Below are positions 3,320-58,373 of a stretch of 64,000 nucleotides of DNA, piece after piece. The stretch covers positions 1,024,001 to 1,088,000 of the forward strand of contig OY969926.1 in the NCBI GenBank assembly GCA_963704645.1. Reading direction: 5' to 3'. Numbering within the stretch: the first letter of the stretch is position 1; every line of letters starts with the position of its first letter. The notes below the pieces were generated by a model. That model was not told where the DNA came from. It searched no databases and saw nothing but the letters and a program-made list of their open reading frames with translations. Both the position numbers and the translations under genes were made by a program. The DNA is from an uncultured bacterium. GTDB lineage: Bacteria > Patescibacteriota > JACMRA01.

Positions 3320-3367
3320 CAAATAAAAAAACTGCCAAGAGGAGGCAGAGCAATTGTCTTTTATTAA

Positions 3368-3727
3368 CTAGTTTTGAATTTCTTCAAGTTCAAAGGGCTT
3401 ATCGAACGTAACGCTGTTAACCAAAAGAGTAATGTTATTTTTAAGTAAAATATTCACCAATTTTAAAAAACATATATTATTGGGGTCTGCCATATTAATG
3501 CTTGTTGCATTAAAGGTTAACCAATTTGGAGGTGTTAAAGTGGCATCAAGATTACCATCAACGTAATAACTCCACCCTTGCTCTTCAACCAAGCTCTGGA
3601 TCAAAGCGTTAGTTGTATCATTCAGCAAGCTAGTATCGTGCTTCATGATATAAAACGATAAACAGTTAGGGAAACAAATACTAGCATAAGTATCTGCCTC
3701 AAGTCTAAAGATTGTTTTTCTTTCCAC
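3368..3727 (-). CDS. Orphan hypothetical protein (cassette type)
   Basis: 119-aa ORF, GTG start after AAGGT; downstream hairpin CTGCC-N7-GGCAG plus T-run. Confidence 0.65.
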   Translation of the reverse strand: MERKTIFRLEADTYASICFPNCLSFYIMKHDTSLLNDTTNALIQSLVEEQGWSYYVDGNLDATLTPPNWLTFNATSINMADPNNICFLKLVNILLKNNITLLVNSVTFDKPFELEEIQN

Positions 3728-3800
3728 ACTACACCTTAAAATTAATCAGTTTTTACTTTCATTTAATAGCACAAACTATGTTGGATGTAAACCCTTAAAA

Positions 3801-5312
3801 TTACTTGTCTAAATAAGCTTGTATTTCGGAGGCTAGACCTTCAATCTTTGTGCAATAATCACCATTTGGGTTGTAAATACGCCATTTTCTACAGTCTGAT
3901 ACTCCCCTATCATTAAAACTTTTGTACCACTTCCCAAAACCTTCAACACCGTCTTCCCAAGTATTATAACCTGAACTAGAACTGCCAGTTAAACCTATTG
4001 AATAAATATTTTTATAAGTATTTGGTCTTGTTGGGTTGCCTGAAGAGGTAAATCTGTCTGTTCCAAACCTTGATTCGTTTCTTGCCAAAGCCAATACATA
4101 TTTTAACGGAGCGTTGTATTTAATTGAAACATCTAAGTATTTGGCTGGATGTACAGGGGAAGTATAATCTCTGTCGTAAACATCGTAAGAACGATACTGA
4201 GCAATATATTTTTCAATTTTTTCAATTGTCTTTATATATTCAACTTTCGTGGAGGACAATTTAGCTTCTTCCTGAACTTTTTCTGCAGTTATAGAACTTA
4301 ATTTGTCATAAGAGCCAACTCCAAAAATTCCCAATAAAGATGAATCTGTAGAGGTTTTTACAGCCGCAGCTGCCCCTAAAGAGCTATTTTCTTGAATATT
4401 TTGTTTGACCTGTTCAATATTTAATACAGAACTAAACTGGGCAAACTCTTCCTCCGACTGTTCGTTAATGGCCAAACAAGTTTTAGGATTGATTAATTCC
4501 GAAAGTAATTGACCATCAGTTTTGTCTTTACTACATGTATTAGCACTAACAGGGTTGGTTTTTAACAAGAATTCCTCGTCGTTACTTAAACCATCGTTGT
4601 CTAAGTCTTCGGTTTTATCTGAACGCACGTTGGCATTATTAAGCTTAATCCATTTAGAATACTCATCATCTTCAACTTCTTTTTGCACTGTTTCTGAAAC
4701 TCCTGCAACTTGGCCAAAAGATGTTACACCTCTTAGTGAGTTAAAGTTTGTAGCTGTAATTACAATTAAACCCAACAAAATAGAAACAACAGCTATTTTG
4801 ATTAAAGAATTTTGTTTAGATTTTAAAAACTTTTTTTTCTTGATGATTGGATGGTTAGGCAAGTCTGAATCATACAATTTGTGCTGAATAGCGTCAAATT
4901 TAAATTCATTTTTTATGGAACTAGTATTTGAATTTAAAGATTCTAACTTAGCTGCTTCTTGAAGCTTTTGCAAGGATTTTGATATTACTTCTAAACTTGG
5001 CTTATCTGAAATAATTTTAACTGGAAGCAGCCTTGATTTAATTTTAACAGGAAGTAAATAAGCAGTATTTTTATTAACAGTAGTAATTGCAACACTTAAC
5101 TTAGACAGATTTTTAAGAGTAGGCTTATTTTCACTTTTAAATTCATACATTCTACCTTTTCCAATGTTTGCCTGTACAAACTTAACAGAGTTGGATTTAG
5201 GGCTAGATTTTAATCCATAATCAATAATACTTACATCATCATCTTGATAATCTAAGCCTGCAGTCCAGCTTGGTTCAGCGGAAGAAAATGTTAGGGAATC
5301 TAAATTTTTCAT
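3801..5312 (-). CDS. Membrane-anchored protein with Ca-binding DxDxDG motif and C-terminal glucosaminidase/lysozyme-like domain
   Basis: TM near aa 172-190; DLDNDGLSNDEE; LALARNESRFGT...NIYSIG...YNTWEDGV resembles the GH73-like catalytic region. Confidence 0.7.
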   Translation of the reverse strand: MKNLDSLTFSSAEPSWTAGLDYQDDDVSIIDYGLKSSPKSNSVKFVQANIGKGRMYEFKSENKPTLKNLSKLSVAITTVNKNTAYLLPVKIKSRLLPVKIISDKPSLEVISKSLQKLQEAAKLESLNSNTSSIKNEFKFDAIQHKLYDSDLPNHPIIKKKKFLKSKQNSLIKIAVVSILLGLIVITATNFNSLRGVTSFGQVAGVSETVQKEVEDDEYSKWIKLNNANVRSDKTEDLDNDGLSNDEEFLLKTNPVSANTCSKDKTDGQLLSELINPKTCLAINEQSEEEFAQFSSVLNIEQVKQNIQENSSLGAAAAVKTSTDSSLLGIFGVGSYDKLSSITAEKVQEEAKLSSTKVEYIKTIEKIEKYIAQYRSYDVYDRDYTSPVHPAKYLDVSIKYNAPLKYVLALARNESRFGTDRFTSSGNPTRPNTYKNIYSIGLTGSSSSGYNTWEDGVEGFGKWYKSFNDRGVSDCRKWRIYNPNGDYCTKIEGLASEIQAYLDK

Positions 5313-5419
5313 TACTTACGGGGTTTACTTTCACAGTGTAACACAGAATTACTATATAATCAACCTTTTTAATGAGTGTGAAAAGCACTGATAACATTTT
5401 ACTACAAATTTTTCAAAAT

Positions 5420-5441
5420 AAAACAAGCCCCTTTCGGGGCC
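5420..5441 (-). terminator. Intrinsic terminator of tuf
   Basis: GCCCC-GAAA-GGGGC followed by TTGTTTT on the minus strand. Confidence 0.85.
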
Positions 5442-5470
5442 TATTGGTTAGAATTATTCTAAAAAGTTAA

Positions 5471-6658
5471 TTACTTAACAATTTTGGTTACAATTCCAGC
5501 GCCAATTGTTCTTCCACCTTCACGAATAGAAAATCTCATTCCGTCTTCAATAGCAATTGGTTTTTCTAATACAACTTTTATGGCTACATCTAAATCTCCT
5601 GGCAATACCATTGGTTTTGCTGCATCTACGAATTGTAAAGATCCTGTTACGTCTGTAGTTCTAATGTAGAACTGTGGTTTGTATCCAGGAAGAATAGGAG
5701 TGTGTCTTCCACCTTCTTCTTTAGTTAAAACGTAAAGATTTGCTTCAAATTCTGTGTGTGGAGTAACAGATCCTGGTTTAACAAGAACTTGTCCTCTTTC
5801 AACTTGGTCTTTAGCAATTCCTCTTAGTAATAATCCTGCGTTGTCTCCAGCCATACCTTTGTCTAACTGTTTGTTAAACATTTCAATTCCGGTTACAACT
5901 GTAGTTTGTGTGTCAGTTAAACCTACAAGTTCAACAGTATCATTTAAGTTAATAGTTCCTCTTTCAATTCTACCTGTTACTACAGTACCTCTACCTGTAA
6001 TTGAGAATACATCTTCAATAGCCATTAATGCTGGTTTGTCTGTATCTCTTTGTGGGTTTTCAATATATGTGTCTAAAGTATCTAGTAAATCTTGAATTTT
6101 AGCTTCCCATTTTGCATCACCTTCTAATGCTTTCAAAGCTGAACCTTGAATAATTGGAGTTTCTTCGCCGTTGAAACCGTACTTCGTTAATAGTTCTCTA
6201 ATTTCTTCTTCAACTAACATAATCATTTCTTCATCATCAACCATGTCGCACTTGTTTAAGAATACAACCATCTTAGGTACACCAACTTGTCTAGCCAAAA
6301 GAATATGTTCTCTTGTTTGAGGCATTGGTCCGTCTGTAGCAGCAACTACTAAAATTGCAGCATCCATTTGAGCAGCACCGGTAATCATGTTTTTAACATA
6401 ATCAGCGTGACCTGGACAGTCAACGTGAGCATAGTGCCTTACAGCTGTTTCGTACTCTACGTGAGCAGTATTAATAGTAATACCTCTTGCTTTTTCTTCT
6501 GGGGCGGAGTCAATAGAGGCATAGTCTCTAGCTTTTGAGTGTCCTGTTTTTGCAGCATATGTTGTAATAGCTGCGGTCAATGTAGTCTTCCCGTGATCTA
6601 CGTGACCAATTGTTCCAATGTTAACGTGAACTTTACTTCTGTCGAATACAGCGGCCAT
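5471..6658 (-). CDS. tuf: Elongation factor Tu
   Basis: [21 protein letters not shown]; start corrected to ATG at 6658 (395 aa). Confidence 0.99.
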
Positions 6659-6772
6659 AAAATGATAAATATAATTAATTGTTGAGCGTCTAAAAAAGAT
6701 TTGCGCTAAAGTAATCCAAAGACAATGCTGTGTGTTTGTCAAGAATTTTTTTTTACAGTAGTATTAGTTAAA

Positions 6773-9127
6773 ATGGCGGATACTAATTTAAATCCAAACA
6801 CAAATTCGGCTGGTAACAACGCCCGATTTACTCCACGTCCAGGGGCGGGTTCGTTGCAACCTACTAATTTTGGACAGAATAATCAAAATTTAGGGGCTAG
6901 TATTCAGAATAATACAACGGTTAGAGGTGCATATGGAAATTGGACAGGTCAAAATGTACAAATGCCAATGCAAAACCAAAATGTAAGACCGGCGAATACC
7001 CAATTCCAAGGCTCGCCTATTCGACCAAATTCGGCACCACAGTTTTACCCAAATCAACCAAACAACCCTAACACTCCTAATCAAAACCCAAATCAACAGT
7101 TTAACAGGCCTCAAGCTTATAATAGCCAACCTTTCGCTCCAAATCAGAATCAGAATGGTAGGCCAAACCTTGCACCAAGACAAGTATCACCTTCTCCACA
7201 AGCAATTCCAAATAAACCACCGTCCGGATTTTTTGGAAATTTGTTTGCTCCAGGCCCTGCACCTATAGATTTAAGAAAAGTAGATAGAAACAGCCCCGAC
7301 TTCTTGAAACAACTTTCTCCTGCAGATCTACGTAGAGAAGTAATTCAAACCGAAATTGATATTCAAAAAACCTTAATTGATACAGAAAAAGCTTATCGTG
7401 AAGGGGTTTCTACTATACGTGATTTAATTTCGCCAAGCGCAGTAAAAATTAACACAGGTTATATTGAAATTGGTACTAAAATTTGTAGAAGCTTCTTTAT
7501 TTTAGCTTATCCTAAGGTTATTAACAGCGAATGGCTGGAAGGTGTGGTAAACACTGACATAGCTTTTGATTTATCAATTTTTGTATATCCACGGGACTCT
7601 TCAGAAGTATTAAAAGAATTGAAAGGTAAAGTTGGTAAAATTCAAGCTTCTTTGCAGCTTAACTCAGAAAAAGGTGCTGCTAGAGATCCTGCCCTTGAAA
7701 CTGCTTACCGTGACGTTGAAGGTCTTCGTGACGCAATTCAGCAAGGTGTTGAAAAATTCTTTAGACTAGGAATTTACATTACTATTTACGCTGATAATAC
7801 TGATCAATTAGAAAAATCTAGCCAAGCTTTGGAAGGTTTACTAAGTCAACAAAACATTGTAATGAAAAGAGCTGCCTTGCAAATGGATGACGGCTTTAAT
7901 TCTTCTTTACCTATTTTAAAAGACGATTTGAACGTTATTTACAACATGAATACTAGCCCACTTTCGGCCGCTTTTCCTTTCGTTTCTTCAGAATTAAGTT
8001 CTAATGATGGTATTTTATACGGAATTAATAGACACAACACTTCCTTAATTATTTTTGATAGATTTGGACTAGAAAACGCTAACTCTGTGGTGTTTGCTAC
8101 ATCTGGAGCTGGAAAAAGTTTTGCCGTAAAGCTTGAAATTTTAAGAAGTTTAATGGTTGGTGTAAACGTTATTGTTATTGATCCTGAACAAGAATACAAA
8201 GTTTTAGCCGACACTTTAGGAGGAGCTTATGTGAACATGAGTTTGAACTCTAACAACCGTATTAACCCATTCGATTTGCCAAAAGCTTTACCAGGAGAAA
8301 GTACAGCCGACATTTTAAGAAGCGCTATTATTGATATTATTGGTTTGATGAACTTAATGCTTGGAAAACTAAACCCAAGCGAGCTTTCTATTATGGAAAG
8401 GGCAATTTCAGAAGCCTATGCAAAGCGTGATATTACTGATACCAGCGATTTAAACACTGTTATTCCTCCAACCATGCAAGATTTAGTGGAAATTTTGAAC
8501 GGAATTGTGGGTGGAGAAAGTTTAGCCCAAAGGTTATACCGTTACACCGAAGGTACTTTTGCTGGAATTTTTAACCAACGAACAAATATTAACATTAGTA
8601 ATAATTTTATTGTATTTAACATTCGTGATTTGCAGGAACAATTACGCCCAATTGCTATGTATATTTTGCTGAACTACATTTGGAACGAAGTTAGATCTAG
8701 CTTGCAAAAAAGAATTTTGGCTATTGATGAAGCCTGGATTATGATGCAATATGAAGATTCGGCTAGATTTTTGTATGGGTTGGCAAAACGTGCTAGAAAA
8801 TATTATTTGGGAATTACCACTATCACCCAAGATGTAGGAGATTTCTTAAACTCACCTTTTGGAAAGCCTATTGTTACCAACGCTGCTATGAAAATTTTGT
8901 TGAAGCAGTCTACCGCAGCTATTGATGGTGTGGCTAATGCTTTTGCTTTAACCGAAGGAGAAAAACAAGTTTTACTACAAAGCGAAGTAGGACAAGGAAT
9001 TTTCTTCGCAGGGCCAAGACATGTAGCTATTGAAATTGTAGCTTTCCCAACAGAATATAGAATTATTACTACCAACCCTAAGGATATATTGAAGAGCCAA
9101 GGCTTGGAAGATTCTGGAGTGCAGTAG
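6773..9127 (+). CDS. VirB4/TraC-like ATPase with Q/N/P-rich N-terminal extension
   Basis: Walker A ATSGAGKS, VIDPEQEY, INPFD, Walker B AIDEAW, RARKY; likely start ATG 6773. Confidence 0.9.
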   Translation: MADTNLNPNTNSAGNNARFTPRPGAGSLQPTNFGQNNQNLGASIQNNTTVRGAYGNWTGQNVQMPMQNQNVRPANTQFQGSPIRPNSAPQFYPNQPNNPNTPNQNPNQQFNRPQAYNSQPFAPNQNQNGRPNLAPRQVSPSPQAIPNKPPSGFFGNLFAPGPAPIDLRKVDRNSPDFLKQLSPADLRREVIQTEIDIQKTLIDTEKAYREGVSTIRDLISPSAVKINTGYIEIGTKICRSFFILAYPKVINSEWLEGVVNTDIAFDLSIFVYPRDSSEVLKELKGKVGKIQASLQLNSEKGAARDPALETAYRDVEGLRDAIQQGVEKFFRLGIYITIYADNTDQLEKSSQALEGLLSQQNIVMKRAALQMDDGFNSSLPILKDDLNVIYNMNTSPLSAAFPFVSSELSSNDGILYGINRHNTSLIIFDRFGLENANSVVFATSGAGKSFAVKLEILRSLMVGVNVIVIDPEQEYKVLADTLGGAYVNMSLNSNNRINPFDLPKALPGESTADILRSAIIDIIGLMNLMLGKLNPSELSIMERAISEAYAKRDITDTSDLNTVIPPTMQDLVEILNGIVGGESLAQRLYRYTEGTFAGIFNQRTNINISNNFIVFNIRDLQEQLRPIAMYILLNYIWNEVRSSLQKRILAIDEAWIMMQYEDSARFLYGLAKRARKYYLGITTITQDVGDFLNSPFGKPIVTNAAMKILLKQSTAAIDGVANAFALTEGEKQVLLQSEVGQGIFFAGPRHVAIEIVAFPTEYRIITTNPKDILKSQGLEDSGVQ

Positions 9128-9226
9128 GTTTTTTAAAATTCTGAGTGAGGAGTTGTGGTTTCAAAACTTTTTGGAAAATAAAAAATTCCACCATAGGGGG
9201 CGGAAGAGTATTAGAAGTGAGATATT

Positions 9227-9571
9227 TCAAATATTATTAAGGGGAATTATTCGACTTACAAGTTCGACATTACTAGCTATAGTCCAGATAAAATATTCAG
9301 TAGCAGTACACTCGAATACAGCTGGGTAAATAGTAAGAGGCTTGAATTGCCAATTAGTTTCTGTTAGATTTGTTTCATAAAGCGAAACACGCTGATTTTG
9401 GTTAGCTTCATCCATCATACCATGTATTATTTTACACTTACGAAATGTTGCGCCGTGATAACAACTTCTCATAATTCTATGCCAATCCAAGTGAAGATGG
9501 GAAGAAACTATATCACGAAAATTCCCATCGCCTACTTCATATTTAGTCAGTCCTTCAGTTGAAATTGCCAT
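9227..9571 (-). CDS. Orphan hypothetical protein (cassette type)
   Basis: ATG 9571 preceded by AGGTGA; upstream TTGACC; downstream hairpin TTCCGCC...GGTGGAA plus T-run. Confidence 0.6.
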   Translation of the reverse strand: MAISTEGLTKYEVGDGNFRDIVSSHLHLDWHRIMRSCYHGATFRKCKIIHGMMDEANQNQRVSLYETNLTETNWQFKPLTIYPAVFECTATEYFIWTIASNVELVSRIIPLNNI

Positions 9572-9660
9572 TCTATTCACCTAACAAAAATAAATCTAAT
9601 TCTATTCATTTAAAACACACTTTTGTGCCTTGGTCAATGATGAACTACTTGCTTTAAAGT

Positions 9661-9689
9661 TTAGACACTGAAATAAATTCAGGGTGACA
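9661..9689 (-). repeat. TGTCACCCTGAA-type palindromic repeat (REP-like), copy 1
   Basis: Reverse complement TGTCACCCTGAATTTATTTCAGTGTCTAA; at least 7 copies in the window. Confidence 0.85.
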
Positions 9690-12185: not shown

Positions 12186-12412
12186 AAAAGCTTATTTCCC
12201 TGAGTAAGTTAGGACAAGGTAAAGGTGTAATTAAATAATCATGATAAAACCAAAACCCCCAATAAAGGGAGCTAAGTTTGGTTAGAAGTATAGCACAATT
12301 AGAGTAAACCGTGGCTGAAAGTACCCCTGGTAAGTAAACTGGCGCAGGTTGAACTTGTTTCAACCGACATGTTTGCCCGAAGGGGTCAAGCCAAAGGCTT
12401 GGGGGTAGCGCC

Positions 12413-12626
12413 GCAAGGTTTGAGGGTAGTTTTGGAATGCGGGATTAAGACTTTATGTATTTGATTTTGTTTTTCTCTATTTCCTTGTCACACCCCAAGT
12501 GGGAGGCGACAAGCATCTCCCCTACTTGGTGTTGTTGAGTTAAAGTATTCCCATACTAAAGTCCACTCCCCATCCCCTTCCCCCTGGGAGATGACAAGCA
12601 TCTCCCCTACATAGTGTTGTGGAGTT
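12413..12626 (-). repeat. Two tandem GTAG-type REP palindromes plus a segment shared with 2757-2789
   Basis: GGGAGNNGACAAGCATCTCCCCTAC at about 12501 and 12586, each followed by TNGTGTTGTNGAGTT. Confidence 0.75.
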
Positions 12627-12639
12627 CAATTATTAACCC

Positions 12640-48107: not shown

Positions 48108-48182
48108 AATTCTAGTTCAGAGCTTGGGGAAGGAAGAGTTTAAGCTAGGAAGAATTTTTAGAGTTGCAGGGGAAGATTTTAA
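48108..48182 (+). pseudogene. Second, shorter and degenerate duplicate of the HIT 3' end
   Basis: AATTCTAGTTCAGAGCTTGGGGAAGGA...TTGCAGGGGAAGATTTT. Confidence 0.8.
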
Positions 48183-48246
48183 GTTATTTACAAAGTTAAA
48201 CTTTTGTTTTTTAATTAGTTTGTAATCTTTATCGAGTCTAAAAATA

Positions 48247-48543: not shown

Positions 48544-48682
48544 TAGTAAAACCTATTAGTGAATGAGCGGCTTAAATTTAAGAGTAGTAACCGCACTACT
48601 CTTTTTTGTTGGGTAAATTTTTAATATAGCAGCTCACGCACCCCTTAGACAAAATACAAAAGTTTTTATTAGTTAAATTACT

Positions 48683-50125: not shown

Positions 50126-50202
50126 GAAGTAGTGCTGGGAATAAGTAGTGTTGTAAAATAATCTTAGGCTCAAAAGCTTAGGCCCTGAAACAAGTTCAGG
50201 GT

Positions 50203-51282
50203 TGTATATGTCAACTTATTCAGTGACAGAATTAAGTTTCTCATAGGGAGTAATATTACCAATACCTTGATGTCTTCTAATATGGTTGAAGTAGCAACAA
50301 TATTCAAATAATTCTTCTTCTAAACTTTCTTTATCTGGGTATACTTGCTCTCTAAGTAATTCTTCCTCTAAACTTCTCCAGAATCTTTCTACTTTACCAT
50401 TGGTTTGTGGCCTGTAGGCTCTAGTGTACTTATGCTTAATGTTGTATTCTAACAGTAATCTTTCAAATGGATGGTTTTGTTTGTTTTCTTCTTTTGTTTC
50501 TTTCCTTCCAAATTCGGGTCCATTGTCTGTTAATATACTTTGAAAATCTATGTTGTAACATCTATTGAATACTGCTAATAATCTTTGAGTATAAAGCATA
50601 ACTGTTAGAGCTTGTAGATTAGGTATTAGTATGGTCATAACTATTCTAGTAAAGTCATCTGTTAAGCTTAGTAGAAAGTATTCATTCTTTTCACCCTCCA
50701 GTATTCCTTTAGCTAGTCTGTGGCAATCCATATGGCCTAATTCTCCTGCTTTATCTTTAATGATTCTTCTTTTGTTAGTTTGAATTACTCTTGGATCTAA
50801 TCTATTCAATCCTTTCTTTAATAGTATATTGTAAATAGTCGTAGGTGAAGGAGTATATTTACCATACTTAGGTAAAAGGAAATCGTGTATCTCATATCTA
50901 CCAAATCCTTGGTTTCTAAGTTCAATAATCTTATTCTGTATGAAAGGAATACTTTTTAAACTACCAAACTTTCTCCCTCTTTTCTTTGGAATTAAACTAC
51001 TATCCATAGAAACTAATTTATACCTATTGTAATATTTGATGAAGTTTTGTCTAGTTATATTATTTGCTTTGTAGAATTCATTTACAAATACATATCTAGG
51101 ATGTTTCCTTGTTTTAATTAATTCATATTCTTGAACTAATTGTTTCATATGTCTAAGGTAATTCTTGGTTAAAGTATTATCGTTTAAACGCATATTATGT
51201 TAGAATATATGTTGTTAAAAATTTAACAGAAATAATCTAAAAGAAGATTTAAATTCTGTCACTGAAATTTATGACATATACA
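50203..51282 (-). mobile_element. IS481-family insertion sequence, 1080 bp, 31-bp IRs, 5-bp TSD AGGGT, inserted in REP copy 6
   Basis: Ends TGTATATGTC-N6-TTCAGTGACAGAATT (26/31 match); AGGGT at 50198-50202 and 51283-51287. Confidence 0.93.
50216..51193 (-). CDS. IS481-family DDE transposase
   Basis: GELGHMD, DDFTR, LTDNGPEF, YRPQTNGKVERF, RRHQGI...TP. Confidence 0.95.
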   Translation of the reverse strand: MRLNDNTLTKNYLRHMKQLVQEYELIKTRKHPRYVFVNEFYKANNITRQNFIKYYNRYKLVSMDSSLIPKKRGRKFGSLKSIPFIQNKIIELRNQGFGRYEIHDFLLPKYGKYTPSPTTIYNILLKKGLNRLDPRVIQTNKRRIIKDKAGELGHMDCHRLAKGILEGEKNEYFLLSLTDDFTRIVMTILIPNLQALTVMLYTQRLLAVFNRCYNIDFQSILTDNGPEFGRKETKEENKQNHPFERLLLEYNIKHKYTRAYRPQTNGKVERFWRSLEEELLREQVYPDKESLEEELFEYCCYFNHIRRHQGIGNITPYEKLNSVTE

Positions 51283-51324
51283 AGGGTGACAGTTTAAACA
51301 ATTACCTTAGCTCAATTTTTATCT

Positions 51325-52314
51325 CTAAACTCTAAAACATTGGACCAAAATTGGAGCTTTGTCTTTATTTACTACATAATAGCTTTGAAAAAAACGTTGC
51401 AAAAATTCCTCTGCTAAAGCATTTTCTCTGTTTTCAGTTTCTGTTTCCACTTCGCCAGTACCCGCTAGAATGTAATTTCCTACATTAATTAATTTTCCAC
51501 CTCTAATATTTTGTATAAAAATACTGCCAAGTTCCAAACCTTCAGCGTCTGTTCTTGCTACCAAAGTAACCAAATCTATATCGGTGGGTTGTGGTAAAAT
51601 AATTTTTTGGGTTCCAATTGTGTCTTGCAAAATGTTTAATCTGTCTCGCCACATTGCTGCTAAAGCAAAGTTTCCAGCAACAACTGCATTACCAATTTTT
51701 TGTTGAATAAAATCTTGTACAAGTTCGGTTTTACCCTCTAAAACATTTTGAATTTGCTTAATTTTTTGTGAATAATCTTGAATATTTTCTTTGCCAACAC
51801 ATATTCCATCACACTGTTTTATACCATAATAATTACAAGGCCGCTTCTGAGGAGTACGCTCCTGACAGTAAGGAAAAATTGTTCTTAAAGTTCGCAGAGT
51901 GTTGTAAATGTTGCTTTGTTTTGTATACGGCCCAAAGTACAAACTAGCTGGATCGTATTTTTTTCGAACTAAAAATATTGCTGGAATTACATCGTTGGTA
52001 ATTCGTACATATACATAACTTTTGTCGTCTTTCAGCAAAATATTATACTTCGGCTGAAGATTATGAATTAAATTAGCCTCTAAAATTAAACTTTCTTTCT
52101 CGGAAGCAACCACAGTGTATTCAATTCTATCAATTCGGCTAATCATTAAAGTTAACCTTTGGTTCTTTGGCCTTCCTTCCTGAAAATAGCTTGCAACCCT
52201 ATTCTTCAAGTTTTTGGCTTTACCAATATATAATAATCCACCGTCTTTATCGTAGTACCTATAAACACCAGGTTTTTGCGGTAAATTTTTAATTGTGGAC
52301 TTGAAATCTGACAT
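51325..52314 (-). CDS. uvrC: Excinuclease ABC subunit C, N-terminal half only (GIY-YIG, Cys cluster, UVR)
   Basis: PGVY, YIGKAKNLKNRVASYF, LILEANLI, PKYNILLKDDK, FGPY; ends at 329 aa without the catalytic RNase H and HhH domains. Confidence 0.9.
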   Translation of the reverse strand: MSDFKSTIKNLPQKPGVYRYYDKDGGLLYIGKAKNLKNRVASYFQEGRPKNQRLTLMISRIDRIEYTVVASEKESLILEANLIHNLQPKYNILLKDDKSYVYVRITNDVIPAIFLVRKKYDPASLYFGPYTKQSNIYNTLRTLRTIFPYCQERTPQKRPCNYYGIKQCDGICVGKENIQDYSQKIKQIQNVLEGKTELVQDFIQQKIGNAVVAGNFALAAMWRDRLNILQDTIGTQKIILPQPTDIDLVTLVARTDAEGLELGSIFIQNIRGGKLINVGNYILAGTGEVETETENRENALAEEFLQRFFQSYYVVNKDKAPILVQCFRV

Positions 52315-52444
52315 TGAACTTAAACAATAAGTAAATTGTTTTTGGAATTTATACAAGCTTATTTTGAAGTGCAATACCAATGCAAGCACATAAATACTTG
52401 TATTATTTTATTCTATCGCTGAACCTTTACAAAACAAAAATTGC

Positions 52445-52906
52445 ATGATTGTAAATAAAGGCAAAAGCACATTACTGGCGAGAACTAAAATCATGAAAAA
52501 GAAACATCCTTTGTATCGTCTCACTGACCAAGGATTACACCTAGTTGTTTCGACTCTAGTCGAGAGAACAAAGACTGAGTATGGCGGAGTTCTACAAGAT
52601 GCCATAGCAGGAATTCTTTTCGAAGGTGATTCAACAGAAGCTTTCAGTGTTGTGAACGATTTTATAGAGGCAGCAGAAAAGACTAGCATTTCTCTCGAAG
52701 GAATTACTACCTACAACGAGGAGGAATTGGTGAGAACATTGCTCTTTGTAGCAGTTGATGATAAGGATTTCAATGGTGATTTTAGGAAAGCTATTCAAGA
52801 ATGCATAGCGAGGGACTGGACAGAAGAATCTTTAACCGAAGAAGTTAATAGGTTGCTTGAACTTGCTAAAAAACATAATATTTCTATTGAGGGAATATTA
52901 GTTTAG
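52445..52906 (+). CDS. Orphan acidic helical protein (cassette type)
   Basis: 153 aa (alternative start 52493); terminator 52918-52949. Confidence 0.7.
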   Translation: MIVNKGKSTLLARTKIMKKKHPLYRLTDQGLHLVVSTLVERTKTEYGGVLQDAIAGILFEGDSTEAFSVVNDFIEAAEKTSISLEGITTYNEEELVRTLLFVAVDDKDFNGDFRKAIQECIARDWTEESLTEEVNRLLELAKKHNISIEGILV

Positions 52907-52981
52907 ATTTTACAGAGTAGATCTTCTTCTGAAGGTCTATTTTTATTTTGAATAATATTTGCTAGCTAATATACGTATTCA

Positions 52982-53944
52982 CTATTCCCGTTCAGAAACA
53001 TATTGAGCCAATTTCAACAAATTCCAAAACAAGCACAAAACTGTTAGCGGGCCAATTCCCCCTGGGCTTGGACACAAAACTACGTTTTCAGATAAATTAT
53101 TTTTATCTACATCACCAATTAGACTTCCTTCTACATCGCTAGTTCCTGCATCAATAACTATAGCATCATCTTTTAACCAGCTAGAATTAATTAGATTTGG
53201 AACGCCTACCCCAGAAATTACAATGTCAGCTTGTTTGGTTAAAGTCTCTGGGTTTTTTGTATCTTTGTTTATAGAAATAATTGTAGCCTCAGTTTTAGCC
53301 AGCCAATTTAAAGTTGGGCTTCCCACCAATTTCCCTTGCCCTACAACAGCCACAGTTTTGCCCTTTAAATTAATTTTATCAGGAATTATCTTTTCATCAA
53401 CAACCAAATTTGTTTTTGAATCAAACTCAGATATTTGGCTTGATTTTGATGTTTCTTCTGTTTTCTGAACTGCAGATTTAGAATTTATGATTTCGTATAA
53501 ACATAGCTGAATGGCCTGTACTGTTGGCCAAAATATATTTTTATTCAACAAATTCGGCCAGTTATTAGATAGTAAATCTACGTCAGAAAAAACTGGAACT
53601 TGTTCAATATATTTTGCAAATTCTTGAGCTAAGGGAAGTTGGAAAATTATTCCTTGGTATGAACTTGATTCTAATTTGGATAACTCTATCACTTTCAATA
53701 AAGACTGTATTTTGAAATGAATATCTTCTTCTTGCCCAGAAAACTTATGTATCACAACTTTCACCCCAAGCTCGGCCCCAAGTTTTTGCTTTAAATTAAC
53801 GTATTTTATAGAACTTAAATTGTCTCCAATTAAAACAATATTTAAAACCAAAGGCAAATATAGCTTATTGTATTCAGCAATTTCTGATATTAAAAAGTTT
53901 TTTAATCTAAGCTTTAAACTAGCGTTACTAAAAATTGTACTCAC
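52982..53944 (-). CDS. folD: Methylenetetrahydrofolate dehydrogenase/cyclohydrolase (divergent)
   Basis: YVNLK, GIIFQLPL, DVD, VVGQGKLVG, VIDAG, GDVD, PGGIGPLTV. Confidence 0.9.
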   Translation of the reverse strand: MSTIFSNASLKLRLKNFLISEIAEYNKLYLPLVLNIVLIGDNLSSIKYVNLKQKLGAELGVKVVIHKFSGQEEDIHFKIQSLLKVIELSKLESSSYQGIIFQLPLAQEFAKYIEQVPVFSDVDLLSNNWPNLLNKNIFWPTVQAIQLCLYEIINSKSAVQKTEETSKSSQISEFDSKTNLVVDEKIIPDKINLKGKTVAVVGQGKLVGSPTLNWLAKTEATIISINKDTKNPETLTKQADIVISGVGVPNLINSSWLKDDAIVIDAGTSDVEGSLIGDVDKNNLSENVVLCPSPGGIGPLTVLCLFWNLLKLAQYVSERE

Positions 53945-54025
53945 AATATTCTAATACAAAACCAAACAATATATGGCAAGTATAGGTATTAATTATCAAT
54001 CAGATTAGCGAGGTACCTACTAACA

Positions 54026-54051
54026 TGTCACCCTTGTATATGTCCTAAATT
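54026..54051 (+). mobile_element. Orphan REP-half/IS481-end junction (scar)
   Basis: TGTCACCCT|TGTATATGTCCTAAATT matches the reverse complement of the junction at about 51266-51291 with 1 mismatch. Confidence 0.75.
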
Positions 54052-54078
54052 ACAAAACTACAACCCGCTATCCCCACC

Positions 54079-54675
54079 CTAGTAAACCACTTTACAAACT
54101 TCTAGCTGAATTCCACTAACCGAATATTTTTCTTTAGTAAAATGAAATGGGCTTGGACTAACCAATTTGTTACAGGCTTCTTTGGTAACTAAAATTTCAC
54201 CTTTTTCTGCAATATCTTCACCTAGCTTGCTGGCCAAATTAATGGCGTCACCAAAAGCGTCTTTACCTTCAATTAGCAAAATATTTCCATAAGAAATGCC
54301 AATACTAACCGCTAAATCTTTAGTATCTTCTGTTAAAGTGTTCATAGCTTGCAAGGCAATATTTATAGAAATTGCTGCTTGAATTGCTTCTTCCACAGTA
54401 TTAAAAACTGCAAACAAATTATCGGCTTCAAACTTTACAACCGAACCTTTAAACCTTTCCACAATAGGTGCCGTAGCTAATTGCATTCGCCTAATCATTC
54501 CTAAAAAATGTGTTAAACCATGCTTTTGGGTTAGAAAAGTAAAACCAGACATATCTAAAGACATCACAGCTTTGTCTTGCCCATATTTTTCCCAAAGTTT
54601 AGCCTCGGCTTGTTTAATATTTTCAGCACCACTGGCTATATTGTATTCATCTATAAGCTTGTAGAAAGATTGCAT
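54079..54675 (-). CDS. Stand-alone class III adenylate/guanylate cyclase
   Basis: SLDMSGFT, VKFEADN, IGISYG, DAFGDAINLASKL. Confidence 0.92.
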   Translation of the reverse strand: MQSFYKLIDEYNIASGAENIKQAEAKLWEKYGQDKAVMSLDMSGFTFLTQKHGLTHFLGMIRRMQLATAPIVERFKGSVVKFEADNLFAVFNTVEEAIQAAISINIALQAMNTLTEDTKDLAVSIGISYGNILLIEGKDAFGDAINLASKLGEDIAEKGEILVTKEACNKLVSPSPFHFTKEKYSVSGIQLEVCKVVY

Positions 54676-54850
54676 ATTAGAATTGTTTTTCTGTTTAATA
54701 AGAAGTTTGGTTTAAGGAAATTGTCAAAAGTACGCAAATAATTTTGCTCTAAATTTTAGCAAATAAAAAATAATTTGTTTAAATTGAAAAAGTGTATATA
54801 CTATGTTGTATCTTACACGATACTTTAACCAAATTAAAAAGAGGAAAGTC

Positions 54851-55234
54851 TTGATAAAATATGTTGTCATTGATGATCAAAGTGTCTATGCAAAACCAAT
54901 AGACCCAGACAATAGTCAAAATCCTATTTTGATAAATCTATGCAGACAAAATTTTGATCTGATCTTTTTTGGGAAAATTGACGAACCAATGGTTAACAGT
55001 TTACACCCATGGAATACTGATGGAGCTGTGATAAAATCTGATGCACCATTTGGAAGAGACCACCTTTCAATTCCATTTGTAAATAAAGTTTACCTAACAG
55101 CAAAAAACGTAGACCAAATTATTCCAGGATCTCCAATTTTATTAAAAATTGATTTTAATCTAAACGGAAAAGAGGATGATGTTTGGGCTTTTGAAGTTAC
55201 AGGCATTATAACCACCGAACTTGGAACATATTAA
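54851..55234 (+). CDS. Orphan hypothetical protein (cassette type)
   Basis: TTG start after AGAGGA (alternative ATG 54803); hairpin AACCCACCA...TGGCGGGTT downstream. Confidence 0.6.
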   Translation: MIKYVVIDDQSVYAKPIDPDNSQNPILINLCRQNFDLIFFGKIDEPMVNSLHPWNTDGAVIKSDAPFGRDHLSIPFVNKVYLTAKNVDQIIPGSPILLKIDFNLNGKEDDVWAFEVTGIITTELGTY

Positions 55235-55355
55235 ATTCTATCTAACCAACCCACCACATCTAATAAATTGGCGGGTTTAATTTTTTCCCAAAAAAAGTTA
55301 CTCGAATACCAACCTTTGACAACCCACCCACCACAAACTAAAACCAAAATGTAAT

Positions 55356-57635
55356 ATGAGTGTGAAACTTCTAAAATTTGAACATCAGTTGGGTGAAATT
55401 GATTGGTTAGTGGAACAGGTTCAAAAGCAAATTGAAAATGGAGTACTTCCGGCCGAAATTGCAATTATTGCCCCAAAGCATAAATACTTGGAAACCATCA
55501 CCAAATTTTTATTAGAAAAAAACATTCCTGTAAGTTATATTCGTGAAAATTCTGTGCTTGAAGAACCAACTATTGTGGCACTTTTAGACATGGTAAAATT
55601 AACCCATTTTATAATTACCAACCCAGAACAAGCCAATGTTTACTGGCTAAAAGTTTTGTCTAACCCTTGTTGGAATTTGTCTGCTTCAACTATTTCCAAA
55701 TTATCTTTAATTACTTTTTATTCAAGGTTAAGCTGGCAAGAAACTTTAGGCTTAATTGAAATTGGTAGGACAAATATAGCTTCAAATAAATTGGCTAGTG
55801 AAGGTAAAAGGGAGCAGAAAAGTGGCGTCAACAATAATGCTTTAGATTATATTGCAAGTTATACTCTAGAGGGTATTTCAAACGATGATGTCGGTGGCTC
55901 TGCAAACAATATTTTAAGAAATGTTATAGATGATGTTCTAATTGCTAAACCACATTTGCAGCTTACTGAGACCGAGGTGAAACAAGTGTCTTCAATTTCC
56001 AAATTCTTCATCGAAATTTCAAAAACAGCTTTGCAAGAACCAGCCGAGCAAATTTTAAACCGTTTACTTGGTGTTGAAAATGTACAAATTGGAGCAGAAG
56101 AAGAAACCGACGACGAAATAGAATTAGGTTTAATAGAAAATGATAACTTCGATTTTAATTCTACAACACAAAACTTAAACCAGAAAAAAACTCAAACTTT
56201 TGTTTCACCTTTCAAGCAATATTACTTTGATACAGCCAGAAATAATAATGATAAAAACTACTTAATTTTCTTAGCCAATTTACGGGTTTTGGTAGACCAG
56301 CTTCGTAAAATGAATTCGGCTGAACAAATTTTAATTAGTCATTGGCTAGAATCTTTAGCCATTTTAAATGCCAGACAAAAGCCCTTGGTTTCTAAATTAA
56401 GCATAGGAAATTCAAGCCAATCTGTAAATTTAATTACGGCGCATTCTGCTAAAGGTTTAGAGTTTGAAACTGTTTTCTTGGTGCACTGTAATAAAAGTGT
56501 TTGGAGCAGTAAAGGTAAAAATACAATACTTTCTTTGCCGAAAAACCTTAATTTACAATCAGAAGCCGAGAACAGAGATGACCAAATTAGGCTATTTTTC
56601 GTGTCTCTAACAAGAGCAAAACGTAATTTGTTTTTAAGCTATTCCAATTTAAGTTTGCAAGATGAACAATTAGAAAAACTAACCTTCCTTGATGAAAGTA
56701 GCCTTGAAGAAGAGGTAGTTGAAAAAGAAATTTTGCCTTTAAATTTACATTGGTTTAATTTGAAAAGCCAAGAAAACCTGTTAACCTTAACCGAAACGGA
56801 ATTTCTAGCCCCAGAGCTTCAGGGCTACCAATTAAGCGTTACCCATTTAAACAACTTTTTGGACATTGAAAAAGGCGGGCCAAACTATTTTTTGTCTACC
56901 AATTTACTAAGATTTCCTATGGCTAAAAGTGAATCGGCTGTTTTTGGAACTTTAATGCACGAAAGCATGGCCAATTTCTATAAACAATTTGCTTCCACCA
57001 AAACTTTGCCAGATTTTGACTATTTGCTAACTTCCTTTAAAACATTATTGAACAGGCAAAAAATTAGTAAGAACCAAAAAGAAAAAGACTTTAAAAAAGC
57101 CAGCAGGTACTTAAAAGATTATTATGAAAATAGAAAAGATGAGTTCAATTTTAACCACAAAATTGAGTTTGACTTTAAAAACCAAGGCGTTCTTTTAGGC
57201 CAAGCAAAATTGTCTGGTAAAATAGATAAAATGGTTATAAATGAAGAAAATAAAACTATTTCAGTTATAGATTTAAAAACTGGGAAATATATTCCAAAGT
57301 GGGTTGAAAAGGGAACAAGTTACGAAGCCGAAAAGTCTGATAATTACAAAAGACAATTGGTTTTTTACAAACTTTTAGTAGAAAATTCCCGCGAGTTTAA
57401 AGGCAAATACATTGTAGATAGCGGCGCCCTAGACTTTTTAGAATCAGATTTGGACACTGGTTTAGTTCATTGTTTAGAGACTAGTATTTCAAACCACGAG
57501 GCGGAACAATTAGAATTATTAATTCAAAAGATTTGGGCCAGAATTATGAAATTAGACTTTTCTTTACCCAGCCAAAAGTACGACAAAGGCTTAGCAGGAA
57601 AACAACAATTTATTCAAGAATTGCTAGCGGAATAA
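55356..57635 (+). CDS. UvrD/AddA-like helicase C-terminal half fused to PD-(D/E)XK nuclease; N-terminal ATPase half absent
   Basis: IAIIAP, ITAHSAKGLEF, RLFFVSLTRAK, FGTLMH, GKIDK...VIDLKTG, QLVFY; no Walker A/B. Confidence 0.88.
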   Translation: MSVKLLKFEHQLGEIDWLVEQVQKQIENGVLPAEIAIIAPKHKYLETITKFLLEKNIPVSYIRENSVLEEPTIVALLDMVKLTHFIITNPEQANVYWLKVLSNPCWNLSASTISKLSLITFYSRLSWQETLGLIEIGRTNIASNKLASEGKREQKSGVNNNALDYIASYTLEGISNDDVGGSANNILRNVIDDVLIAKPHLQLTETEVKQVSSISKFFIEISKTALQEPAEQILNRLLGVENVQIGAEEETDDEIELGLIENDNFDFNSTTQNLNQKKTQTFVSPFKQYYFDTARNNNDKNYLIFLANLRVLVDQLRKMNSAEQILISHWLESLAILNARQKPLVSKLSIGNSSQSVNLITAHSAKGLEFETVFLVHCNKSVWSSKGKNTILSLPKNLNLQSEAENRDDQIRLFFVSLTRAKRNLFLSYSNLSLQDEQLEKLTFLDESSLEEEVVEKEILPLNLHWFNLKSQENLLTLTETEFLAPELQGYQLSVTHLNNFLDIEKGGPNYFLSTNLLRFPMAKSESAVFGTLMHESMANFYKQFASTKTLPDFDYLLTSFKTLLNRQKISKNQKEKDFKKASRYLKDYYENRKDEFNFNHKIEFDFKNQGVLLGQAKLSGKIDKMVINEENKTISVIDLKTGKYIPKWVEKGTSYEAEKSDNYKRQLVFYKLLVENSREFKGKYIVDSGALDFLESDLDTGLVHCLETSISNHEAEQLELLIQKIWARIMKLDFSLPSQKYDKGLAGKQQFIQELLAE

Positions 57636-57730
57636 GCTAAATCATAGGAAAATATCTCGAGTCTCGATGTTAAGTTTTTTTTCAAACATATAGTCATCAT
57701 AGATTTTAACAAAATCACTCCTAAATTCTC

Positions 57731-57765
57731 GAGCCTGTCACCCTGAATTTATTTCAGGGTATAAG
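57731..57765 (+). repeat. TGTCACCCTGAA-type palindromic repeat, copy 7
   Basis: GAGCCTGTCACCCTGAATTTATTTCAGGGTATAAG. Confidence 0.85.
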
Positions 57766-57828
57766 TGTATAAATATGATAAATTAGTTTCAGGTTTAGTA
57801 TTTTATAAAGAGAATGCAATGGAACAAA

Positions 57829-57889
57829 CCTTGCACACCATAGTTTTTTGTGCTACCAACAATATATACCAATTCGGTACAAATTTACT
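57829..57889 (+). promoter_or_regulatory. Promoter/leader shared with the reverse complement of about 21398-21458
   Basis: CCTTG...TTTTTTGTGCTAYCAAC....TATACCAATTCGGTAMAAATTTACT; 41/46 identity in the core. Confidence 0.8.
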
Positions 57890-57902
57890 TTGAGATAAAA
57901 AA

Positions 57903-58307
57903 ATGGATTTACTCAGTATTCCTGACAATACAACTATCAAAGTTGAAGCTAAAATACCGTCCCACACTATTGTGGCAATTAAAACGGACCATTCTGCCCA
58001 AACCTGCGAGATTGATGTTGAAGAACTACCAATTTCTATAGTGCTGATCAATAACCCATATTCTGGTGGAGAGAACGACAAAGTTCAGCGCTCTGGATTA
58101 CTAGAAATTTTTGACATTAGAAGATTCGATATAACATTGGTGCACAATGTCAATTTTATACAGGAAGTTCTAAGTGTCCCGGAGGTGCAAATTATCACTT
58201 CTAATCTTATCGTTTTTAGTGGAATTTTCTGGATGTATGCAGATCCAAGTAATGCGTGGGTATTTCAAATTGAAGTACCAGCAACTATTACAATTGATAA
58301 TTTATAA
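57903..58307 (+). CDS. Orphan beta-rich protein, probable remote paralog of 20970-21380
   Basis: 134 aa; shared flanks; scattered colinear motif similarity. Confidence 0.7.
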   Translation: MDLLSIPDNTTIKVEAKIPSHTIVAIKTDHSAQTCEIDVEELPISIVLINNPYSGGENDKVQRSGLLEIFDIRRFDITLVHNVNFIQEVLSVPEVQIITSNLIVFSGIFWMYADPSNAWVFQIEVPATITIDNL

Positions 58308-58323
58308 TAAAACTTATAACAAC

Positions 58324-58373
58324 CACCCAAATTACCAAACAACTTCATAAGTTTAAGGTAGGGTGGCTTTTTT
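58324..58373 (+). terminator. Long structured terminator shared with 20903-20951
   Basis: CACCCAAATTACCAAACAACTTCATAAGTTTAAGGTAGGGTGGCTTTTT. Confidence 0.85.

Follow-up and report, generated by a model that had tools for sequence, protein, structure and literature searches.

Two start architectures divided by gene conservation in the genome of an uncultured patescibacterium

The 64,000-nt stretch of DNA analysed here (the window) corresponds to positions 1024001-1088000 of contig C1, the closed genome of an uncultured patescibacterium, and contains many small open reading frames (ORFs) inserted between conserved genes. Results of our analysis indicate that gene starts in this genome, as well as in that of a sister species, are of two statistically distinct types which are partitioned by gene conservation. 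Conserved genes show no enrichment of Shine-Dalgarno (SD) motifs and often have a sigma-70-type promoter so close to the start codon that their mRNAs would be leaderless or nearly so, whereas genes without a homologue in the related genomes compared more often have a promoter farther upstream, a short leader, an SD motif, and an intrinsic terminator. The SD-led genes show high turnover and divergence, and their regulatory flanks are conserved or shared. In our opinion, they are probably fast-turnover accessory genes carried on portable SD-led units, and it is by gene conservation that the two start architectures are split. A preliminary description of the window had proposed a genome-wide class of autonomous cassettes (promoter, leader, SD, and terminator) as opposed to an SD-free core, and this proposal is supported by the genome-wide data and replicated in the second species.

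The genome comprises 1,272,640 bp (33.4% GC) with 41 tRNA genes and one tmRNA gene; no tRNA and no Rfam match was detected in the window. Genes for Omp85/BamA, LpxC, and ribosomal protein L30 were not found in the closed genome. The absence of L30 is linked to the Candidate Phyla Radiation (CPR), and the phylum-level relatives of the organism all have small genomes of 0.7-1.2 Mb. Taken together with the VirB4/TraG-like ATPase and PrgI-family protein described below, these features suggest an organism of Patescibacteria/CPR type. The closest named relative, G001, represents the same genus (78% identity of frr; 1,007,513 bp) and was compared whole, as was G022 of another family of the phylum (785,860 bp), while G037 of a second genus of the same family was sampled over 197 kb. 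ORF calling by a codon log-odds score yielded 1156 genes, which were divided by tblastn (E<1e-5) into 271 deep genes with a match in G022, 520 genus genes with a match in G001 only, and 365 genes with neither, referred to here as orphans. One gene near a contig end was excluded from the upstream analyses, which left 519 genus genes and 790 conserved genes there.

A strict SD motif was defined as GGAG, GAGG, or AGGA within positions -18 to -5 relative to the start codon, and the interval from -58 to -45 served as a control. Such motifs precede 6 of the 271 deep genes, 22 of the 519 genus genes, and 62 of the 365 orphans, as compared to 11, 22, and 16 occurrences in the respective control intervals. 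Thus, the orphans differ clearly from the pooled conserved genes (28/790; odds ratio 5.6, p=5e-14), in which the motif occurs at background frequency (control 33/790). If anything, conserved genes may be depleted of SD motifs, as predicted duplex energies of -6 kcal/mol or lower were obtained for 21 of them vs. 39 control intervals (p=0.024). The contrast is retained among genes with a predicted leader of 16-100 nt (31/86 orphans vs. 10/107 conserved genes, p=7e-6), for ATG starts with ORFs of at least 80 aa, and inside length classes. Alignment with G001 fixes the start of 438 conserved genes, and in these the motif was found 11 times vs. 18 times in the control interval. When any start within the first 30 codons is allowed, the SD rates are 4.1% for deep genes, 9.2% for genus genes, and 29.3% for orphans, at equal numbers of candidate starts. 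The spacing of orphan SDs peaks at 6-10 nt upstream of the start. The SD rate rises as the identity to G001 falls, from 1.1% (85-100% identity) through 2.4%, 3.5%, and 3.4% to 8.6% (below 40%) and 17.0% (no match). In G001 itself, SD motifs precede 44 of the 214 genes without a homologue in the studied genome vs. 35 of the 749 conserved ones (p=1e-11; controls 7.5% and 5.9%).

The conserved genes are distinguished by the position of their promoters. Genome-wide, the sequence TTGAC starts exactly 35 nt upstream of the start codon in 57 genes, and 38, 37, and 36 nt upstream in 18, 22, and 14 genes, respectively, while the baseline is about 4 per position. Position -1 is T in 64% of genes. In the 57-gene set, position -11 is A in 76% and position -7 is T in 64%, which is the pattern of a predicted sigma-70 -10 element set so that the first transcribed nucleotide would be the A of the ATG. 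A position-weight promoter model predicts a 5' untranslated region (5'UTR) of 0 nt in 69 genes and of 1-5 nt in 68 genes, with a broad hump at 6-40 nt. The exact TTGAC box at -38 to -35 occurs in 43/271 deep and 55/520 genus genes, but only in 13/365 orphans. Among genes that are first in their transcription units, predicted leaderless and led (15-60 nt) starts number 54 and 27 in the deep class (n=191), 63 and 82 in the genus class (n=381), and 23 and 104 in orphans (n=284). If only promoter-bearing genes of this kind are considered, leaderless and led starts amount to 117 vs. 109 in conserved genes and 23 vs. 104 in orphans (odds ratio 0.21, p=3e-10). A 5'UTR of 0-5 nt is predicted for 28% of the deep and 17% of the genus first-in-unit genes. 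The same TTGAC spike is seen in G001 (54 genes at -35), where the box precedes 106 of the 749 conserved genes vs. 8 of the 214 non-conserved ones. The leaderless box was also detected in the G037 sample, in 12 of 86 conserved vs. 3 of 111 other genes, and a spike at -35 was not seen in G022. We infer from these promoter positions that many core mRNAs are truly leaderless.

Seven core genes of the window had been described as AT-rich and SD-less at their starts, some with a promoter very near the ATG. Both statements were borne out: none of the seven has GGAG, GAGG, or AGGA 5-14 nt before the start, and the predicted transcription starts of dnaN, frr, and rseP lie 3-5 nt before the ATG. What had been under-read is the predicted leaderless transcription itself, with the -35 box located exactly 35 nt before the ATG in the genome-wide set. 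These genes are as follows (here and below, positions are those of the window):

1450-2649, plus strand: dnaN (ORF 1492-2649; Pfam DNA_pol3_beta), TTGACA about 38 nt upstream, predicted 5'UTR of 4 nt, SD-free
5471-6707, minus strand: tuf (called ORF 5471-6742; Pfam GTP_EFTU)
15137-16690, minus strand: rseP, M50 peptidase with a PDZ domain according to Pfam (ORF 15137-16648), TTGACA about 40 nt upstream, predicted 5'UTR of 5 nt, SD-free
35362-35944, plus strand: frr (ORF 35399-35944; Pfam RRF, E 5e-50)
43026-44033, plus strand: dus (Pfam Dus), predicted 5'UTR of 8 nt, SD-free
44212-44991: map (identified by Pfam), predicted transcription start 13 nt before the ATG
48683-50125: Mur ligase gene (identified by Pfam), predicted transcription start 2 nt before the ATG (weak match)

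The frr gene exemplifies the predicted leaderless or near-leaderless core type, as its TTGACA begins 38 nt before the ATG and the promoter model (score 12.4) sets the transcription start 3 nt before the ATG. The tuf gene represents core genes that have a leader but are SD-free. Its true start is probably the ATG at 6658, because the alignment with G001 begins at residue 26, and the promoter match places the transcription start at 6707, which would give a 49-nt AU-rich leader without an SD.

The orphans, according to the promoter model, have a promoter 15-60 nt upstream more often than conserved genes do. Their predicted promoters match the same TTGACA model as those of the core genes. No upstream motif common to the orphans was found beyond sigma-70-like boxes, and the sharing of flanks is limited to pairs of cassettes; the flank-sharing graph was not used quantitatively, as neighbouring genes share one intergenic region. 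A generic sigma-70 consensus scan of the region 36800-56000 gave no enrichment (76 sites found vs. 75 expected) and is uninformative in such AT-rich DNA. A hairpin followed by a T-run is present downstream of 84 of the 365 orphans (23%) vs. 81 of the 791 conserved genes (10%; p=2e-8), as compared to 10 of 730 intragenic controls. Where the gap downstream is 60 nt or longer, the terminator rates are 30% in orphans vs. 14-17% in conserved genes. A second, independent scan of the region 36800-56000 revealed 20 terminator-like sites vs. 10.7 expected (standard deviation 4.3), the best of which adjoin orphans. The predicted folds at terminators have z-scores of -3.9 (37463-37515), -2.0 (45575-45622), -3.3 (20890-20969), and -2.1 (58308-58385). 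In genome-wide scoring, both SD and terminator frequencies differ between the two gene classes.

All 17 orphan ORFs that had been listed for the window are present, and none of them reaches a Pfam cut-off. For 15 of the 17, there is no tblastn match in G001, while 37028 and 46618 have weak syntenic matches there (28% and 47% identity, respectively). Their predicted signals are as follows:

3324-3737, minus strand: orphan cassette, ORF 3368-3727 (119 aa), GTG start preceded at 4-6 nt by AAGGTG, terminator 3324-3348
9178-9640, minus strand: orphan cassette, ORF 9227-9580, TTGACC promoter, predicted transcription start 9602, terminator 9178-9205
17848-18390, minus strand: claimed orphan, ORF 17848-18318 (156 aa, multi-pass hydrophobic), TTGACC upstream, GAGAGA before the ATG
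20379-20758, minus strand: orphan cassette, ORF 20428-20730 (100 aa), leader of 28 nt from a predicted transcription start at 20758, AAGGGA, terminator 20379-20402
20890-21450, minus strand: orphan cassette, ORF 20970-21380 (136 aa), leader of 41 nt from a predicted transcription start at 21421, SD AGGAG 21393-21397
36992-37510, plus strand: fast-evolving cassette, ORF 37028-37462 (144 aa, hydrophobic segment at the N terminus), leader of 36 nt from a predicted transcription start at 36992, SD GAGGA 37014-37018, terminator 37474-37510
38479-39166, plus strand: two-gene orphan unit, ORFs 38496-38759 (87 aa) and 38756-39166 (136 aa) with stop/start overlap ATGA, SDs GAGG 38481-38484 and GGAGG 38742-38746 (duplex -15 kcal/mol), respectively
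42460-42916, plus strand: orphan cassette, ORF 42518-42868 (116 aa), TTGACA with TGnTGTAAT upstream, weak GGAAG motif, terminator 42891-42916
45047-45340, minus strand: orphan ORF 45086-45340 (84 aa), SD not found, terminator 45047-45079
45582-46080, minus strand: orphan cassette, ORF 45623-46021 (132 aa, acidic), TTTACA box, leader of 23 nt from a predicted transcription start at 46044, SD AGGAG 46028-46032, terminator 45582-45610
46578-47352, plus strand: ORF 46618/46663-47283, GGAG 9 nt before a TTG at 46663, terminator 47322-47352
47421-48136, minus strand: orphan ORF 47561-48046, probable internal ATG after AGGA, TTGACA at the ORF's 5' end, terminator 47525-47554
48222-48611, plus strand: orphan cassette, ORF 48247-48543 (98 aa), transcription predicted to start at 48222, no clear SD, terminator 48580-48611
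52445-52950, plus strand: orphan ORF 52445-52906 (153 aa, acidic), SD not found, terminator 52915-52950, resembling that of 37028
54780-55234, plus strand: orphan ORF 54803/54851-55234, TATACT -10-like box abutting the ATG at 54803, AGAGGA 6 nt before a TTG at 54851
57840-58385, plus strand: orphan cassette, ORF 57903-58307 (134 aa), hairpin CCACCC...GGGUGG with a U-run, weak GAGA SD-like motif only

The -35-like boxes, leaders of tens of nucleotides, and purine motifs that had been noted upstream of many of these ORFs are indeed seen on reading. The further statement that they mostly have an SD and a terminator stands with regard to terminators, which a pattern scan detected in 11 of the 17, and long-loop hairpins with a U-run may serve this function at 20970 (within 20890-20969) and 57903. 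With regard to SDs it was generous: a strict motif precedes the longest-ORF start in 5 of the 17 (20970, 37028, 38496, 38756, and 45623) and, when the previously proposed or nearby internal starts are allowed, in 8 of the 17, with the addition of 46663, 54851, and 47561. Motifs of AGGTG type occur at 9227, where the probable start is the ATG at 9571 with AGGTGA just before it, and at 3368, while no SD was found for 45086, 48247, and 52445 even when alternative starts were checked. The ORF at 54851 likely belongs to a unit composed of a promoter, a leader of about 40 nt, an SD, and the TTG start; no terminator was found there. In the case of 17848, the coding strand is unsettled, as the codon-score caller favoured an overlapping ORF on the opposite strand (17969-18283). 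The product of 46618 has a weak, sub-threshold match to the receiver domain. ORF 47561 is located between exact 29-nt direct repeats (47421-47449 and 48108-48136), and the terminators 47322-47352 and 48580-48611 are nearly identical.

The comparison of gene order with G001 points to a high turnover of these genes. For 87 orphan runs, the genes on either side are also adjacent to each other on a single contig of G001; 32 of these sites are empty in G001 (gap below 300 nt), and 47 hold a different, non-homologous ORF. In the window, empty sites correspond to 3368 (140 nt between the flanking orthologues in G001), the interval 47284-48682 with 47561 and 48247 (138 nt), 52445 (136 nt), 54803 (64 nt), and 37523-39166, i.e., the two-gene unit 38496/38756 together with a TrmB-like gene (37523-38263; 59 nt). 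Sites filled by another ORF are those of 9227, where G001 has a different ORF of 82 aa, and 45086/45623. The G001 counterpart of 45623 (C1:72718-73128 of that genome, 136 aa) is of matched length and 25% identical in protein sequence (Smith-Waterman z 8.3), while core proteins are on average about 69% identical between the two species. The 80 nt upstream of these two ORFs, including an SD-like purine run, are conserved (z 16), as is the terminator (z 5.2). Judging from these alignments, the two ORFs are positional orthologues in which the putative promoter, leader, SD, and terminator are better kept than the protein. Similarity at the protein level (z>5) was detected in 11 of 108 positional pairs; other pairs, e.g., that at 913149, keep flanks around unrelated coding sequences. 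The orphans had been expected not to be syntenically conserved lineage genes. This expectation was confirmed for those at empty sites and was not for some, such as 45623, which are positional orthologues, albeit fast-evolving. Within the genome, the cassettes of 20970 and 57903 have about 45 nt of promoter and leader in common, and among upstream regions the motif CCAATTCGGTA occurs at these two only. Their 3' flanks (20903-20951 and 58324-58372) are 98% identical over 49 nt, but the encoded proteins are unrelated (BLASTP E 4.6).

Proteins of orphan genes differ in charge from conserved proteins of the same size. In the range of 60-220 aa, the median isoelectric point is 5.0 for SD-preceded orphans and 5.8 for other orphans vs. 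8.3 for genus and 9.0 for deep genes (p=1e-8). Their codon usage is nearly native: the native-codon score is positive (0.18-0.19 vs. 0.22-0.25 log-odds per codon in conserved genes). The SD-preceded orphans show only a small shift in GC content (0.348 vs. 0.328-0.340), GC content at third codon positions (0.271 vs. 0.248-0.249), and codon log-odds (0.178 vs. 0.22-0.25). Orphans had been described as set singly between core genes, and 124 of the 202 orphan runs are in fact of length one. None of the 17 window orphans has a paralogue in the genome. Neither 45623 nor 20970 has a match in 25 other genomes of the family, and 38756 matches only itself among 1.84 billion representative proteins; in genome contigs, its 41 pattern matches yielded none that was confirmed. 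A single relative of 45623, P0002 (59% identity), is encoded on an unrelated 24-kb metagenome contig. Searches of metagenome contigs with 45623 gave 90 (single protein) and 166 (2-sequence alignment) pattern matches, none of which was confirmed, and ESM Atlas provided no usable match for 45623 or 52445. The structure predicted for 45623 from a 3-sequence alignment has a mean predicted local distance difference test score of 63.7 and a predicted template-modelling (TM) score of 0.56. The best Foldseek match of this protein in the PDB, to Alba-like chains (E 0.02, TM 0.32-0.42), was not trusted, and none was obtained at E<=0.001. Orphans are obvious candidates for host-interaction or defence proteins of this lineage.

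Several orphan genes occur in islands. The window region 19717-34501 is a twelve-gene island without a tblastn match in G001, and it encodes a 2671-aa protein with CBM96, Big_13, and FlgD-Ig matches that may be a surface adhesin. Within this region lies a YhcG-type nuclease gene (21469-22888) that is split into two overlapping ORFs, one with the DUF1016_N domain (21516-22139) and the other with the YhcG_C PDDEXK domain (22130-22579). Direct repeats of 33 nt (21469-21501 and 22856-22888, 94% identity) enclose this gene, which looks as if it had been inserted and then broken. Outside the window, a run of 13 orphans includes three genes (83, 83, and 78 aa) at C1:906318-909142, each with its own promoter, SD, and terminator. 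Judged from the printed sequences, those at 906318 and 908906 apparently have common leaders and similar proteins. The island around them contains genes that, judged by sequence alone, are probably of RadC, MazG, Fic/Doc, and RelE-like types.

The 16S rRNA of the organism ends with ...GGATCACCTCCTTTCT and contains the canonical anti-SD CCUCC; therefore, its own ribosomes can pair with the orphan SDs, and they presumably use them. The 16S 3' end was not found in G001 or G022 by a regular-expression search. Ribosomal protein S1 (C1:187795-188787) has four domains and 400 aa, and bS21 (PF01165) was not found in the genome; these two features may be relevant to leaderless or SD-independent initiation. 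In Flavobacteria, bS21 occludes the anti-SD.

These data are consistent with the following scheme. Conserved genes would be transcribed from sigma-70-type promoters (TTGACA at -35 to -30, A at -11, and T at -7) with transcription starting on the A of the start codon or 1-5 nt before it, which would yield leaderless or near-leaderless mRNAs, and those conserved genes that have a leader or lie inside operons would be preceded by AU-rich sequence with no SD enrichment. In species-specific or very fast-evolving genes, most of which encode small acidic proteins, a promoter located 15-60 nt upstream would be followed by a short leader with an SD at 6-10 nt from the start, and the unit would end with an intrinsic terminator. 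The orphan SDs would be read by the 30S subunits of the cell itself, while core mRNAs would be initiated at the 5'-AUG or by SD-independent routes. The split itself would most likely be the result of gene turnover, in which accessory genes are gained, replaced, and diversified as promoter-SD-ORF-terminator modules that are sometimes exchanged between conserved flanks, and the exactly positioned promoter needed for leaderless initiation is acquired by long-resident genes only.

Several points weigh against this scheme. A strict SD precedes the longest-ORF start in only 17% of orphans, and any start within 30 codons in 29%; the existence of two architectures is a statistical tendency and not a rule, because most orphans are also without a strict SD. 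Turnover gives no reason why accessory genes should need an SD when conserved genes with a leader, such as tuf, manage without one. In the G037 sample, the SD difference was not significant (8/111 other vs. 3/86 conserved genes, p=0.35), and in G022, of another family, neither the leaderless box nor SD enrichment is seen in either class. The orphan class is mixed: it includes an APH-like kinase, the split YhcG nuclease, an RDD protein, the TrmB-like regulator, and possibly spurious ORFs, as well as the probable toxin-antitoxin and defence genes of the second island. G001 is a draft of 86% completeness, and some orphans are merely unassembled there. Gene calls, start choice, promoter model, and terminator scan relied on ad hoc scripts, and the genome that was scored had also served to train the promoter model.

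Among other explanations, we regard as possible, although rather unlikely, that the SDs are decaying, unselected relics of recent horizontal transfer from SD-using donors, such as phages, plasmids, or other bacteria. The empty sites in the sister species and the mobile cargo of islands (the split YhcG gene with its 33-nt repeats, the APH-like kinase, a 12-copy rve transposase, and probable toxin-antitoxin and defence genes) would be expected in this case, as would the slightly higher GC content of SD-preceded orphans (0.348 vs. 0.32-0.34) and their lower codon score; the gradient of SD rate with divergence could reflect amelioration. However, no donor is visible, since 45623 and 20970 lack homologues in the family genomes and 38756 is unique in the protein database. 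SDs are also rarer in large islands (5/51) than in singletons (24/124), and composition is near native. Moreover, SD-like motifs and whole leaders are kept at positional orthologues with about 25% protein identity, and the retention of signals while proteins diverge argues for selection on the signals. The earlier suggestion of foreign acquisition can thus account for a part of the observations only: the empty sites agree with it, while the near-native codon usage and GC content, the different ORFs at 47 of the 87 sites, the positional orthology of 45623, and the gradual rise of the SD rate with falling identity do not. A kinship with phage early-gene modules, which had been proposed as well, was not confirmed, as 0 of 10 tested window orphans match PHROGs (E<=0.01). 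That wrong starts hide the SDs of conserved genes, or that spurious short ORFs and start picking create the SD class, is very improbable. Some called starts are indeed wrong (tuf, 9227, 46618, 47561, and 54803) and very short ORFs occur among orphans, but the alignment-confirmed conserved starts still have fewer SDs than their controls, and the contrast is kept with any start within 30 codons. The equal control intervals across classes, the canonical 6-10-nt spacing, and the replication in G001 largely exclude such an artefact, and spurious ORFs would dilute an SD signal and not make one.

A different function of the SDs is also conceivable, but we consider it doubtful: the SD-led genes could form a regulon translated through a separately controllable channel, switched independently of the core, e.g., via ribosome composition or anti-SD availability, and used for host-interaction or defence proteins. 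In an equally doubtful, stronger form, the core proteome would be fully leaderless or SD-independent, and the anti-SD would be kept chiefly for portable cassettes of small acidic proteins, with SD as a separately tunable second channel; the cassette proteins would then probably serve host interaction or defence. Such a channel would fit the retention of the anti-SD in a genome whose 790 conserved genes show no SD enrichment and perhaps depletion, the distinct composition of orphan proteins (median isoelectric point of 5.0 with an SD vs. 8.3-9.0 in conserved proteins of the same size), the conservation of signals at positional orthologues, and the four-domain S1 together with the lack of a bS21 match. 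On the other hand, neither a regulator nor a factor modifying the ribosome was identified, an SD is missing from most orphans, and orphans have no common upstream motif beyond sigma-70-like boxes. The preliminary description had also raised the possibility that the cassettes are messages suited to the SD-using ribosomes of a host cell and expressed there after transfer. The self-contained nature of the units and the conserved VirB4/TraG-like ATPase and PrgI-family protein encoded in the window could be reconciled with this view, which nevertheless is hardly credible: the organism's own 16S rRNA has the canonical anti-SD, the cassette promoters fit the TTGACA model of core genes, codon usage is native, and no sequence feature demands a foreign ribosome.

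The classification of bacteria by GeneMarkS-2 separates the leaderless-rich 'group C', in which other genes use SDs, from the non-SD 'group B' (PMC6028130, its supplementary tables aside). As in group C species described there (e.g., Mycobacterium and Deinococcus), in the genome studied here a -10 box is located at a fixed short distance before the starts of first genes, and other genes form a second class, with both a leader and an SD. Whereas the led or internal genes of group C generally carry SDs according to the same description, the conserved genes of this kind show no enrichment here (28/790 vs. 33/790 in controls; 10/107 of those with a leader), and SDs are enriched in the non-conserved genes only (62/365). 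The lineage is also different, since the 1.27-Mb genome without Omp85, LpxC, and L30 is not that of a member of Actinobacteria or Deinococcus-Thermus. With the Bacteroidota-type group B it has in common the SD-less core despite CCUCC in the 16S rRNA and AU-rich upstream regions. Group B, as characterized in the cited description, does not show the strong leaderless promoter signal seen here. A further difference is the lack of a bS21 match in this genome, and the absence of SDs applies here to the 790 conserved genes but not to the 365 non-conserved ones, a subset of which carries SDs.

The cassettes resemble horizontally acquired islands in their patchy presence, empty sites, insertion-sequence (IS) and defence-type neighbours, and slightly atypical composition. 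They differ in being mostly singletons between syntenic core genes, of near-native composition, without homologues elsewhere, and in some cases with positional orthologues. Like integron cassettes, they are small, single-ORF, interchangeable units, and one pair shares both flanks around unrelated ORFs; unlike those of integron arrays, they are scattered and have their own predicted promoters and terminators. No recombination site common to them was seen, with flank sharing in pairs only, and no search for an IntI-type integrase was made. The lack of PHROG matches and the scattered, single positions distinguish them from a prophage or a phage early module. In the literature searched, the supplementary tables of PMC6028130 aside, we came across no account of CPR/Patescibacteria being dominated by leaderless genes, or of SDs limited to non-conserved genes. 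Leaderless-rich and SD-poor genomes are known separately, and what is unusual here is the clean split within one genome. If real, it would provide a concrete and testable reason why genomes that make little use of SDs retain the anti-SD, and the combination of leader, SD, and terminator would be a sequence mark of fast-turnover accessory genes in an uncultured small-genome lineage. Gene finders tuned to one start model would then mis-call starts in one of the classes. Should the anti-SD be kept for the cassettes, this would be a natural answer to the question of why SD-poor bacteria never lose CCUCC.

Other features of the genome concern mobile and repeated sequences, secretion, and RNA genes. 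A tRNA-Ile gene with the anticodon TAT is located at C1:1155868-1155945. No 23S rRNA match was detected within 1.5 kb downstream of the 16S gene, and the rRNA genes may be unlinked. The VirB4/TraG-like ATPase (window 6725-9127) is 84% identical to its counterpart in G001 and 43% to that in G022; together with the conserved PrgI-family protein (36061-36789), it is a part of a lineage-conserved type IV secretion system of monoderm type. The transposase with the rve integrase domain (325 aa, 50216-51293) belongs to a 12-copy family (325/353 aa), and about 100 nt next to it (51194-51293) are identical at other copies. A palindromic element resembling repetitive extragenic palindromic (REP) sequences is composed of GTCACCCTGAA, about 5 nt, and TTCAGGGTCTAA, and one copy of it abuts an IS element; the largest cluster of similar intergenic regions numbers 181 members genome-wide. 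Copies of the element in the window are located as follows:

9655-9689, 15008-15044, 35973-36012, 36894-36941, 44046-44094, 50170-50215, and 57731-57763, either orientation: REP-like palindromic element

A 393-bp intergenic repeat (12247-12639) is located upstream of the gene 12640-14385, and its copies of 96-99% identity are present at at least five other positions, e.g., C1:851654, 480418, 486947, and 798465.

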